The notes under the pieces: model-generated
Databases searched by the model: none
What the model saw: the letters and a program-made list of their open reading frames with translations, nothing else
Told to the model about the DNA's origin: nothing
Made by a program: the position numbers and the translations under genes
In this document: in pieces, positions 44,456 through 47,303 of the stretch
Numbering within the stretch: position 1 is the stretch's first letter
How the letters are laid out: each line of letters begins with the position of its first letter
Assembly: GCA_963775425.1 (NCBI GenBank)
Contig: CAVZJB010000012.1
Span: 32,001 to 96,000 of the forward strand
Direction: 5' to 3'
DNA length: 64,000 bases
Source: an uncultured delta proteobacterium
Lineage (GTDB): Bacteria; Myxococcota; UBA727; VGSZ01

Positions 44456-45274
44456 ATGCTCACCCTCGCGCTCCTCGCCTCGCTGGCGGCACCGGTGGTG
44501 CGCGTCGCCGTCGAAGGCGACGATCCGGTGGTGGGCTTCGTGCGCGCGCGGCTCTCCGCCGCCGGCCTCGCCCTCGTCGAGCCCAACCAGGCCGACGTGC
44601 GCGTGCGCCTGCGCGTCCTCGAGCACGGCGGCATCCACGTCGTCGTCGAAGACCGCCGCGGCGTCCTCGTGGACCGCGACCTCGACGGTGACGAGCCCCA
44701 GGTCGCCGCGTGGCTCGCCGTGCGCGACGCCGTCGAGCGCGTCGACGTCAGCGCGCCGCCGCCCTCCACGCAAAAGCCCGCCCCGCTCCCCGTCGCCGTC
44801 GACGTCCTCGCCGGCGCCGCCCCCGACGTCGGCCTGTCGTCGACGTCGTTCTTCCCCGTCGCGCTCGTCGTCAGCGCGCGCTGGCCCGTGGTCCCCCACC
44901 TCCGCATCGTCGCCGACGCCGGCTACGCCGTCGGCTTTTCGTCGGGCGTCGTGCTCCACAGCCTCCCCGTCCGCTTCGGCGCCGAGGCCACCGGCGGCGA
45001 CGACGTCGAGTGGTCCGCCGGCGCGCGCGTCTCCACCACGCCGAGCCTGGCGGTCTCCGGCTCGCGCGCGGGTGGCGGCGTCGGCGCCGCCGTCGCCGCG
45101 TACGGCCGCGTCGCGTTCCCGCTCGGGCGCGTGCTCGGCCTCGACGCCGCCGCCGTCGTCGAGGCCGGCCTCGAGTCCAAGCTCGTCCGCGAGGTCGTCG
45201 TCACCGACGCCGGCACGCGCCAGGAGCCCCTGTTCGCCGCGCCCGTCTCCGTCGGCGTGGAGGTGCGCCTGTGA
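44456..45274 (+). CDS. Secreted hypothetical protein with beta-barrel-like C-terminus, first gene of the ECF sigma operon
   Basis: Signal-like MLTLALLASLAA; amphipathic strands ending VSVGVEVRL; TAGCAT 9 nt upstream. Confidence 0.7.
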   Translation: MLTLALLASLAAPVVRVAVEGDDPVVGFVRARLSAAGLALVEPNQADVRVRLRVLEHGGIHVVVEDRRGVLVDRDLDGDEPQVAAWLAVRDAVERVDVSAPPPSTQKPAPLPVAVDVLAGAAPDVGLSSTSFFPVALVVSARWPVVPHLRIVADAGYAVGFSSGVVLHSLPVRFGAEATGGDDVEWSAGARVSTTPSLAVSGSRAGGGVGAAVAAYGRVAFPLGRVLGLDAAAVVEAGLESKLVREVVVTDAGTRQEPLFAAPVSVGVEVRL

Positions 45275-45283
45275 GACGTCCTG

Positions 45284-45289
45284 TGTCAA
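45284..45289 (-). promoter_or_regulatory. Outward-facing -35 box (TTGACA) at the IS110 right end
   Basis: Perfect TTGACA; in the circle junction it lies 17 nt before CAACCT from the left end. Confidence 0.6.
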
Positions 45290-45312
45290 CCACCGCGCTG
45301 CGTCACGCCATC

Positions 45313-46518
45313 TCAGGCGGCGAGCGCGGCGGCGCGGCCGTGAAGGGCCGGGTCGTACGGGACGCGGGCTTTCCAGCACGCGTACAGCACCCGGAGCCAC
45401 GCACGAGCGAGGATGCGGGTCGCATGCGGGTGGTCGTGGCCGCGAGCGCGGGCAGCGTCGTAGAGGGCGGCGGCCCATGGCGAGCTGTGTCGCGAGTTGT
45501 CGGCCCAGAGGGTCACGGCGGAGCGCAGGTGCTTGTTGCACGCCCACCGGAACGCGACGCCGACGTGCTTGCCGGACGCGAACGTTACGGGGCACACGCC
45601 AGCCTCGGCCTCGAGGTGCTCGTGGCTGTCGAAGCGCGCGCGCTCGTCGCCGAGCTCGCTGAGAATCTGCGCGGCGTTGATGCGTCCGCTGCGCGGAAAC
45701 GACATCACGATGTGCCCGTCGGGGTGCGCCTCGACGGCGTGTTCGACGGCGGCGTTGAGCTTCTTGAGACGTGCGACGACGATGTCGAGGACCGCGACGA
45801 GGTGCTGCACGGCTTCCCCCTTCGCCTCGGCCTCCATCTCGCCGCACTTGCCGCTGGGCGCACCTCGCAAGCGGCCCAGGAGCTCGGCGACGTCCCTGCG
45901 ACCGGAGTAGTGGTTGCGCGCCAGGAACGCTTCGAGCCGCTTCTCGCCGACGCGCTCGGCGTGCTGCGGTGTCGGGTACCTCCCGAGGAACGCCAGCGCG
46001 ATGGGCGAGTCGATGTCGCGGAAGATGCACGCGGCGCCGGCCCAGAAGCTCTCAACGAGCGCGCGCAGCTGGTTCGCCAGTGCAACCCGCTCGGCAACGA
46101 GGTCGCCGCGTGCGCGAACGAGGGCACGCAGCGCCTTCGTCTCGTCTCCGAGCGGCGTGAGCGTCTTGAAGCGATGCCCATCGGTGCGCAGCAAGTCTGC
46201 CAGCAGGTAGCTGTCGCCGGGGTCGCTCTTGGCGCCAACGCTCGAGTAGCGCGGACGCGTCGCTTTCACGACGTTCGGGTGAATCGGCACGACGTGGAAT
46301 CCCGCATCGACCAGCGTGTCGACGACGAGCCCCGTCGGCCGCTCGATGGCGATGCGCAGCGGCGCTTCCTCAGTGAACCTACGGAGCTTCGCCACAGCGC
46401 CGGTGAGACCCTCCTCGGTGTGCTTGACGACGAGGCGGAGCACGACGCTGCCCTTGTCGTCGATGACGCAGACGGCGTGTTCGTTCGCCGCCCAATCCAA
46501 ACCTGCAAAGTACGACAC
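45313..46518 (-). CDS. IS110-family DEDD recombinase/transposase
   Basis: AGGAGG then GTG 46518; AGLDWA, IAIE, KSDPGD, SFPRSG, AGVCPVTFASGK, CNKHLR. Confidence 0.95.
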   Translation of the reverse strand: MSYFAGLDWAANEHAVCVIDDKGSVVLRLVVKHTEEGLTGAVAKLRRFTEEAPLRIAIERPTGLVVDTLVDAGFHVVPIHPNVVKATRPRYSSVGAKSDPGDSYLLADLLRTDGHRFKTLTPLGDETKALRALVRARGDLVAERVALANQLRALVESFWAGAACIFRDIDSPIALAFLGRYPTPQHAERVGEKRLEAFLARNHYSGRRDVAELLGRLRGAPSGKCGEMEAEAKGEAVQHLVAVLDIVVARLKKLNAAVEHAVEAHPDGHIVMSFPRSGRINAAQILSELGDERARFDSHEHLEAEAGVCPVTFASGKHVGVAFRWACNKHLRSAVTLWADNSRHSSPWAAALYDAARARGHDHPHATRILARAWLRVLYACWKARVPYDPALHGRAAALAA

Positions 46519-46540
46519 GACGGACCTCCTTGTTGCGGTA

Positions 46541-46760
46541 CCGTCCCCCGGGCTGGGAGCCTTGATCGGTTGCTCATTGACAGGCGCTCCGTCGTCGTCA
46601 GCAAACATCGTCGGGCGCAACGTCCTGTAGCCGCTTCAAGGCTCCCGGCTTCGTCGAGGGGGCGGGTCTCACAGGGGCCGTTCACCGGCAAGCGAGCGCG
46701 GCCCTCCCCGACGAAGCCCGGGAGACGGCGCCGGGAAGATCGCTCAACCCGTCACCGCGG
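46541..46760 (-). ncRNA. Putative IS110 bridge RNA (target- and donor-binding loops)
   Basis: Stems 46541-53/46716-28, 46555-65/46636-46, ~46649-56/46709-16; loops carry matches to donor junction and target site; 5' end approximate. Confidence 0.8.
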
Positions 46761-46775
46761 CGTAGAGGTTGTCCA

Positions 46776-47303
46776 ATGAGCGACGACGTCGACGCCGTCG
46801 TGCGCGCCCACGGCCCCGACGTCTGGCGGCTGCTCAAGCGCATCTTCGGCCAGCACGCCGACGTCGACGACACCTTCCAGCAGGTGATGCTCGAGGTCGT
46901 GCGCGCGCTGCCGTCCTTCCGCGGCGACAGCGAGTTGTCGACGTGGATCCACCGCATCACGCTCAACGTGGCCTACCAGCGCATGCGGCGCGGCTACCGG
47001 GGTGTCGAGGTCGACCTCGACGAGGCCGGCGTCGCCGTGGCCGACGTCGACGTCGAGGGGCAGGTGGCCGACGCCCAGACCGCGCGCCGCCTCTACGAGA
47101 GCCTCGAGGCGCTGCCGCCCAAGAAGCGCATCGCCGTGGTGCTCCACGACGTCGAGGGCCTCACGCTCAAGGAGATCGGCGAGCGCCTGGGCATCCCGTT
47201 GCAGACCGTGGCGTCGCAGCTCCACTCCGGGCGGGCGATGCTCGCCGAGGCGCTGTTCGTCCAGGGCGAAAACCGCGCGCGCGCGAAGGGGGGCGAGCGA
47301 TGA
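46776..47303 (+). CDS. ECF sigma-70 factor
   Basis: DVDDTFQQVML...LPSFRGDSELSTWIHRITLN; LPPKKRIAVVLHDVEGLTLKEIGERLGIPLQTV. Confidence 0.93.
   Translation: MSDDVDAVVRAHGPDVWRLLKRIFGQHADVDDTFQQVMLEVVRALPSFRGDSELSTWIHRITLNVAYQRMRRGYRGVEVDLDEAGVAVADVDVEGQVADAQTARRLYESLEALPPKKRIAVVLHDVEGLTLKEIGERLGIPLQTVASQLHSGRAMLAEALFVQGENRARAKGGER

Follow-up and report, generated by a model that had tools for sequence, protein, structure and literature searches.

A probable bridge RNA gene with readable guides in the left end of an IS110-family insertion sequence from an uncultured delta proteobacterium

The element, its recombinase and its copies

The window, i.e. the whole 64-kb stretch of DNA that was analysed, contains on its minus strand an element classed from its sequence as an IS110-family insertion sequence, placed at the start of a sigma factor gene (Table 1). 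The layout follows that of the IS110 group, with a left end (LE) of 258 nt against a right end (RE) of 37 nt and the word CTCA bordering the element on both sides (46780-46777 and 45275-45272). The consensus of the right end among related elements is GTTGACACAGGnnGT, followed by CTCA.

Table 1. Features of the element and its surroundings (positions in the window)
Feature	Positions	Strand	Remarks
IS body	45276..46776	-	1,501 bp; 4 full copies 100% identical; identity stops at the same borders
Left end (LE)	46519..46776	-	258 nt, non-coding for the recombinase, carries the putative bridge RNA gene
Right end (RE)	45276..45312	-	37 nt; contains TTGACA 45289-45284 and the left donor arm ACAGGACGT 45284-45276
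Recombinase gene	45313..46518	-	401 aa; GTG start 46518, AAGGAGG upstream, stop at 45313; Pfam matches
Left junction word CTCA	46777..46780	-	CT core copy + CA (first two bases of the right donor arm)
Right junction	45268..45275	-	second CT(CA) copy + right target arm CAG(G)
5' stem-loop ahead of the junction	46732..46751	-	minimum-free-energy fold, predicted, this copy only
Outer stem, 5' strand	46716..46728	-	closes the three-way junction; 13 pairs with 46541-46553
Outer stem, 3' strand	46541..46553	-	same 13 pairs
Target-binding arm	46650..46715	-	basal stem 46715-46701 with 46663-46650, internal loop, inner hairpin 46689-46677
Donor-binding arm	46556..46645	-	stems 46645-46641/46560-46556 and 46634-46631/46569-46566
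Donor-binding arm, continued		-	internal loop, inner stem 46618-46615 with 46587-46584
Left target guide (LTG) UCGCUUG	46689..46695	-	UCGCU 46695-46691 equals left flank tCGCT(CA): 5 Watson-Crick matches to left flank + core, then wobble-capable U, G
Right target guide (RTG) CCUGUGAG	46668..46675	-	positions 46675-46668, reverse complement of CTCACAGG (45275-45268), i.e. of CTCACAG(G); effective 7 nt CUGUGAG
Left donor guide (LDG) ACAGGACGU	46620..46628	-	positions 46628-46620, equal to 45284-45276, the last 9 nt of the element
Right donor guide (RDG) CAAUGAG	46573..46579	-	positions 46579-46573, reverse complement of CTCATTG (46780-46774), i.e. core + the element's first 3 nt
Candidate handshake guide AC	46666..46667	-	3' of RTG; complementary to GT 45277-45276, the element's last two bases
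Candidate handshake guide C	46572	-	3' of RDG; complementary to the G before the target core (46781)
Antisense frame	45271..46779	+	502 codons; from captured host start GTG 45271-45273 through the whole element to TGA 46777-46779
Interrupted host gene	46776..47303	+	ECF-type sigma factor, 175 aa; Pfam Sigma70_r2, r4_2, ECF

The recombinase is the single long gene of the element. Its Pfam matches, DEDD_Tnp_IS110 (PF01548, 1.5e-32) and Transposase_20 (PF02371, 2.3e-14), are both above the curated cut-offs. Residues D8, E59, D99, D102 and S315 were invariant across 20 homologues. The first two were assigned as catalytic by position only; the last three align with two Asp and the Ser of the IS621 chain, located at 104, 107 and 243 when counted along that chain, which would correspond to D102, D105 and S241 of the IS621 paper via a numbering offset of two residues. 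The only solved relatives, IS621 and ISCro4, were weak matches restricted to the C-terminal half (E = 3.8e-07 and 9.7e-07), and with 401 aa the protein is longer than the solved IS621 chain of 328 residues. By sequence similarity it is classed as only remotely related to IS621. A database search returned more than 7,900 relatives at E <= 1e-40, with an identity of 88% for the nearest one and of around 65% for most of the others. The nearest relatives on plasmids were those of Mesorhizobium (62%), Mycobacterium avium and M. intracellulare (about 51%) and Streptomyces (about 47%). The description of the enzyme as uncharacterised in the initial annotation, which had been made from the sequence without database searches, is plausible.

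The host genome (8.26 Mb in 18 contigs) carries four identical full copies and one partial copy. The latter (contig 18, approximately 86450-87382) retains the left 933 bp only. The left flanks of the five copies read tCGCTCA, gCGCTCA, gCGCTCA, cCGCTCA and cTGCTCA, with GCTCA terminating all five left junctions, a word that is also kept at the left junction of homologous loci. Among the four full copies, the right flank is CTCACAGGC in two and CTCACAGCC in the other two. All left flanks thus contain (C/T)GCTCA and all right flanks CTCACAG(G/C), as the two target guides of the putative RNA predict. The element is site-specific and orientation-specific, since the identity of the copies ends at the same borders and the flanks share these words. 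A protein search in 60 taxonomic relatives of the host gave no close homologue, the best result being one match of 30% identity, and the element was therefore probably acquired horizontally.

These copies also bear on the possibility that the window copy is an inactive relic, in which guide-like strings have been inherited and are no longer used. While one of the five copies is truncated, and three of the four full copies lie at sites matching the left guide over CGCT only, the full copies are 100% identical over 1.5 kb and each is found at a different site with the predicted target, which points to recent movement. The recombinase frame is moreover intact and its catalytic residues are conserved, so that a relic is considered very unlikely.

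The left-end RNA, its guides and their conservation

The left end was folded as an RNA of 263 nt. The minimum free energy was -143.2 kcal/mol (z = -5.95), a value equalled by none of 200 shuffled sequences. The outer stem of 13 bp proposed in the initial annotation is real in the sense that 46728-46716 pair with 46553-46541 within the minimum-free-energy fold, with a single U-G pair among them. A scan of positions 45000-47100 against Rfam 15 returned matches at chance level only, the best with E = 0.5 (snoRNA and miRNA models), and none to a bridge-RNA family.

Four guide segments had been read in this RNA, two related to the flanks of the element and two to its own ends. Re-extraction by script returned all four strings, each related to the flanks or ends as claimed (Table 1). 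As a chance control, 122,568 segments of 258 nt were taken from both strands of the window with the element excluded. The 8-mer, 9-mer and 7-mer guides each occurred in none of these segments, nor did the four guides occur together in any, so that each of these three matches is improbable by itself. Shortened to 7 nt, the right target guide was present in 0.8% of the control segments. The 5-mer UCGCU was found in 25% and the left target guide is therefore not significant alone; the caution expressed beforehand, that it is a match of only 5 nt, is justified, the match being weak and continuing through wobble pairs. The two right guides had been called long. For the right target guide, seven rather than eight positions are effective: the right flanks facing it in the host genome are CTCACAGG (twice) and CTCACAGC (twice), and the eighth base matches at two of the four sites. 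The right donor guide keeps its extent in the family, CTCA plus three nucleotides.

To compare the RNA among relatives, 80 homologous loci with a protein identity of 59–67% were collected in a scan using one genome per species. Their hosts belong to the Kofleriaceae, Acidobacteriota, Gemmatimonadota, Methylomirabilota (Rokubacteria), Alphaproteobacteria, Planctomycetota, Actinomycetota and others. A UGAGC motif lies 46–84 nt ahead of the start codon in 79 of the 80 (L041 being the locus without this anchor), and the left ends align well. Using RNAalifold on the 61 distinct left ends, the same architecture was obtained as from the single sequence, with an outer helix, a first arm consisting of a basal stem, an internal loop and a small hairpin, and a second arm built likewise.

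Pairs were counted after removal of the three that join the two donor guides. Standard pairs occupied 94.8% of the cells in the 61 left ends, against 74.5% in 500 shuffles, and at most 44.4% of cells were paired when the partners were slid along each other. Two-sided (compensatory) changes were observed in 27 of 34 pairs. These included all four of the innermost outer-stem pairs (46720-46717 with 46552-46549) and 16 of the 17 pairs of helices 2–4 in the target-binding arm, which were 85–99% paired; helices 5–7 of the donor-binding arm were 97–100% paired. The combination of folding and covariation across homologues that had been suggested as a check thus returned the three-way junction proposed from the single copy, its outer helix included.

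For the guides, the columns were taken from the alignment and the element ends were located by patterns independent of the guides, namely a conserved motif of the ACC[T/C] type following the left end and words of the GAC-ACAGG type at the right end. Loci in which an end was not located were dropped, 18 of the 80 in the case of the left end and 12 in that of the right, and L033, L034 and L043 were kept though probably mis-delimited. The match of each guide to its own DNA was compared with 10,000 shuffled pairings. The match counts, which overstate independence because the shuffles ignore relatedness among the elements, were 303 of 352 for RTG (shuffled 243.4), 283 of 390 for RDG (249.9), 218 of 275 for LDG (192.2) and 307 of 550 for LTG (263.3), and in each of the four whole-guide tests the observed total exceeded that of every shuffle. 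All four loop segments accordingly track their own ends or flanks above shuffled pairings, as expected from the initial annotation, with LTG the weakest.

The extent of each guide in the family was read from the single positions. RTG covers CTC plus four nucleotides: the positions after CTC match in 44, 44, 39 and 34 of 44 pairs and the next one, the eighth base, in 10 of 44. At its variable positions 171 of 220 match, compared with 111.4 after shuffling. For RDG, each of the three variable positions agrees in 38 of 39 pairs, and agreement at the three beyond them does not exceed chance. Seven distinct RDG triplets (CAA, CAG, UGA, UAG, UAA, CUA and GAA) each match their own left end, which reads TTG, CTG, TCA, CTA, TTA, TAG and TTC respectively, with 21 of 24 positions in agreement. 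LDG extends over 9 nt. Its family positions match in 89 of 98 cases (shuffled 74.7), the dinucleotides AC, AU, GU, AA and CU facing the same dinucleotides in the right end, and in three loci (L023, L045 and L047) ACGGG replaces ACAGG on both sides. The two bases that follow LDG show no Watson-Crick pairing to CT (7 and 0 of 25).

LTG consists in the family of GCU[C/U]G, opposite the target GCTCA and with the last two positions pairing by wobble, and about five weaker positions. The five positions upstream match in 22–36 of 50 loci, about 15.5 being expected, and 137 of 300 cells upstream of GCU match. An alternative register of this guide, CGCUC(G) at 46698-46693, was rejected, as the family alignment places GCU[C/U]G opposite GCTCA, which is the register of the initial annotation.

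The changes of state are many and also occur between close relatives. L095-L097 read CTCAAGCG, L049 reads CTCACGC and L090 reads CTCATGCG, and each matches its own guide. In one Acidobacteriota assembly (L019, L020 and L022), two variants of an element differ in both target guides, RTG being CGGAUGAG in one and CGUGUGAG in the other, and their flanks differ accordingly in the first bases; from these sequences the pair looks like a case of natural reprogramming. On plasmid pMLa of Mesorhizobium japonicum (L100) the family RNA is present, with a right end of ACAAGGTAT and a left donor guide of ACAGGGUGA; this may be a decayed copy.

Compensatory changes in the structure, together with guides that track their own DNA, support by comparison the reading of the interval as the left-end bridge RNA gene of an active IS110-group element, which is considered very probable. 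A conserved structure in this position might instead be a leader or regulatory RNA for the recombinase, the end matches being subterminal repeats that are recognised by the protein without RNA guidance. The structure is indeed situated directly upstream of the recombinase start and its AAGGAGG, and LDG and RDG match parts of the element itself, as such repeats would. RTG and LTG, however, match host DNA outside the element and change with it, as the variable positions of RTG demonstrate. Repeats recognised by a protein need no compensatory changes in RNA pairs, and the Shine-Dalgarno sequence of the recombinase lies outside the sequestered parts of the fold. A leader RNA is accordingly regarded as very unlikely.

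A core of 4 nt (CTCA), shared by target and donor, had been proposed from the window copy. This does not hold in the family, in which the shared core is CTC at most. In L089 the left junction reads CTCA and the right one CTCC, the corresponding words in L043 are CTCA and CTCG, and in both loci RTG follows the right-junction version. Target and donor thus each have a fourth base of their own, which is part of the right arms. IS621 has a core of CT, and its top strand is reported to be cut directly behind this word (PMC11208158). By homology, the core shared in this family is likely to be CT, and the right arms would then begin with CA. All junctions seen contain CT, which is covered by RTG, RDG and LTG, but not by LDG under Watson-Crick rules.

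In IS621, the nucleotides directly following RTG and RDG on the 3' side are also described as pairing with the partner molecule once strands have been exchanged (PMC11208158). The bases AC and C at the corresponding positions of the window copy are consistent with this model and are listed as candidate handshake guides in Table 1. In the family GAGAC and the GT end are near-invariant, as is the target GCTCA, and UGAGC is invariant; with both sides nearly invariant, no covariation is possible for these bases. The second DBL position did not track the target in the family.

Comparison with known systems and the proposed cycle

The bridge-RNA mechanism was described in 2024, and bridge recombinases are under development as genome-writing tools. 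To our knowledge, every bridge system tested so far comes from the neighbourhood of IS621 and ISCro4. Like the element described here, IS621 of Escherichia coli and ISCro4/IS622 have a DEDD RuvC-like domain and a Tnp domain with a catalytic Ser. Further resemblances to IS621, as far as set out in the descriptions of that system (PMC11208160, PMC11208158), are the RNA gene in a long left end combined with a short right end, the target loop preceding the donor loop, and the complementarity of the 3' guide side to the core and right arm. The 5' sides of the loops read as left arms, so that the strand rule is as in IS621 (PMC11208160, PMC11208158). The order LTG-RTG-LDG-RDG, recognised from the window copy in the initial annotation, is the published IS621 layout (PMC11208160). 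CT is likely to lie at the crossover here as in IS621, and the candidate handshake bases 3' of the right guides, which would be able to pair with the partner molecule, may be a further resemblance (PMC11208158).

The element differs from IS621 in several respects. Its outer helix closes both arms, while the IS621 description gives a 5' stem-loop, two loops and a linker (PMC11208158). CA follows CT in every donor seen, unlike in IS621, and LDG lacks the Watson-Crick pairing to the core that is part of the IS621 description. A literature search for a three-way junction or multiloop in connection with bridge RNA or IS110 gave no such description among the matches listed.

The elements of the IS1111 group guided by a seekRNA (ISEc11 and the IS4321/IS5075 type) are similar in that a DEDD recombinase is combined with a short RNA in which both target strands are matched, according to their description (PMC11187229). 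In the same description the RNA is located in the right end, as opposed to the left end here, the subterminal inverted repeats are long (7–17 bp) and the order of the strand matches is reversed (PMC11187229). The element does not fall in the IS1111 group, its right end being 37 nt and its structured RNA lying in the left end.

Recombinases of similar length and 47–51% identity are found in actinobacterial elements of the IS110/IS900 type, on Streptomyces and Mycobacterium plasmids. The Streptomyces copy (L099) and the M. avium plasmid copy (L098) have the same loop plan as the element and, again like it, an antisense frame that is open over the whole element; the M. avium plasmid copy has GTCA where the family has CTCA. 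Because these relatives share the plan, the element belongs to a large clade together with classical actinobacterial elements of the IS110 type.

Bridge RNAs were predicted in 85.7% of the IS110-group elements of ISfinder according to Durrant et al., and a bridge RNA of the IS110 kind is therefore already known; finding one confirms published biology and in itself is no extension of it. On the features given above, the element is classified as a new member of the bridge-RNA-guided IS110 group, in a clade distant from IS621 and with a three-way-junction RNA. It stands for a large clade (the more than 7,900 proteins mentioned above) that extends over many phyla and is far from the tested systems. 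With guides readable from sequence, a three-way-junction RNA and a target of about 10 nt, it is a reasonable candidate for determining how far the IS621 rules generalise.

By homology with IS621, the element would be excised as a circle in which the right end is joined to the left end over one CT core. An RNA of about 200 nt from the left end would form the three-way junction and its two arms, with an internal loop in each. A tetramer of the 401-aa DEDD/Ser recombinase would cut after CT and exchange strands, a step that would be assisted by the proposed handshake bases, AC following GAG and C following UGAG. Insertion would then take place in one orientation at sites resembling CGCT^CACAG (^ denoting the cut after the CT core). 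Transcription, RNA-protein binding, the cleavage position and the programmability of this element we only infer.

A simple scan of the integrated copy found no promoter of the sigma-70 type, and one terminator-like site at chance level. The hexamer TTGACA (45289-45284, minus strand) is conserved at the right ends of the family, just before the left donor arm. In the circle it would be placed 17 nt upstream of CAACCT, giving a good -35 and a poor -10 box. A junction promoter has been reported for IS621 (PMC11208158), and a similar promoter at the circle junction of this element is possible by analogy.

The antisense frame and the interrupted gene

On the plus strand, the whole element is traversed by an open reading frame (Table 1). 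The Shine-Dalgarno sequence GGAGG (45259-45263) and the GTG of the host gene stay behind at the right junction, in frame with it. The terminal TGA overlaps an ATG (46776-46778) that is regenerated by the first base of the element, and the coding sequence of the sigma factor is therefore intact. Its start has changed from GTG AGC... to ATG AGC..., and its own Shine-Dalgarno sequence is now 1.5 kb away. A GAGG is situated 8 nt before the new ATG, in the reverse complement of the first 20 nt of the element, and the matching ACCT[T/C] is conserved in the family.

The antisense frame is fully open in 30 of 45 distinct homologous elements for which both ends are available, and in six more it stops one codon earlier. 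Considering only the left end, 32 of 41 elements keep the antisense phase open, compared with 6.0 +/- 2.1 after shuffling and with 4, 0, 13, 10 and 6 for the other five frames. Between the first base of the element and the UGAGC anchor, 16 different distances were observed within the range of 161 to 287; 14 of them equal 2 modulo 3, and one of the two exceptions is compensated downstream. Over the recombinase gene, the antisense phase is the one that a high G+C composition keeps open anyway.

From the open left ends and from length variants that differ by multiples of three, it could be argued that the strongest constraint on the interval is protein coding on the opposite strand and that RNA structure is secondary. 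Coding leaves the compensatory pair changes and the guide covariation unexplained, since these are signals of RNA and DNA pairing. In addition, the antisense frame in the left end has no GC3 periodicity (0.68, 0.66 and 0.69), and an element present at 13 loci (the L068 group) does without an open frame. Coding as the dominant constraint is thus hardly credible. Antisense coding and RNA constraints can coexist, the former as a layer added to the bridge RNA gene and not as its replacement.

A more tentative reading is that the whole element, including its bridge RNA gene, is overlaid by an antisense read-through frame and built to sit in gene starts while leaving the coding sequence undamaged; this is possible, if on balance somewhat doubtful. 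With an RTG that is mostly (A/G)UGAG, insertion would be directed to start codons, which appear as ATGAG or GTGAG in the host strand. The ribosome-binding site and start codon of the host would remain at the right junction and open the frame, which would run for about 500 codons through the element and stop at the TGA of the left junction, overlapping the regenerated ATGA or GTGA start. The interrupted gene would perhaps be translated by coupling. Among 59 sites examined for gene-start targeting, a long ORF followed the regenerated start at 35, compared with 25 of 59 for the control frame, so that start-codon targeting is not shown to be general. In the host genome only the window copy is located on a verified gene start; the other three full copies are not at gene starts.

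The target consensus of IS900 reportedly lies between the ribosome-binding site and the start codon. For the same element, 'hed' is described as a complementary-strand ORF that extends over the entire element, with neither a ribosome-binding site nor a start of its own (PMC8141618). The present element corresponds to that definition, with a frame open from 45271 to 46779 that is kept in 36 of the 45 homologous elements. The antisense frame would link the 'hed' observation of 1997 in IS900 with RNA-guided targeting of start codons, and would be of interest for how mobile elements limit the cost to their host. If the reading is correct, the RNA gene evolves under a rule of 'no stop, length in threes' imposed from the other strand, and the novelty would consist of the overlap with the RNA gene and the possible translational coupling.

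The element of the L068 group is a family member present in at least 13 copies in one Acidobacteriota assembly (L068-L084), without an open antisense frame. Its right flanks contain a repeated palindrome-like word of the GACGCCTCCCGGAGGCGGCC type, which suggests, from the sequence of these flanks, a REP-like target.
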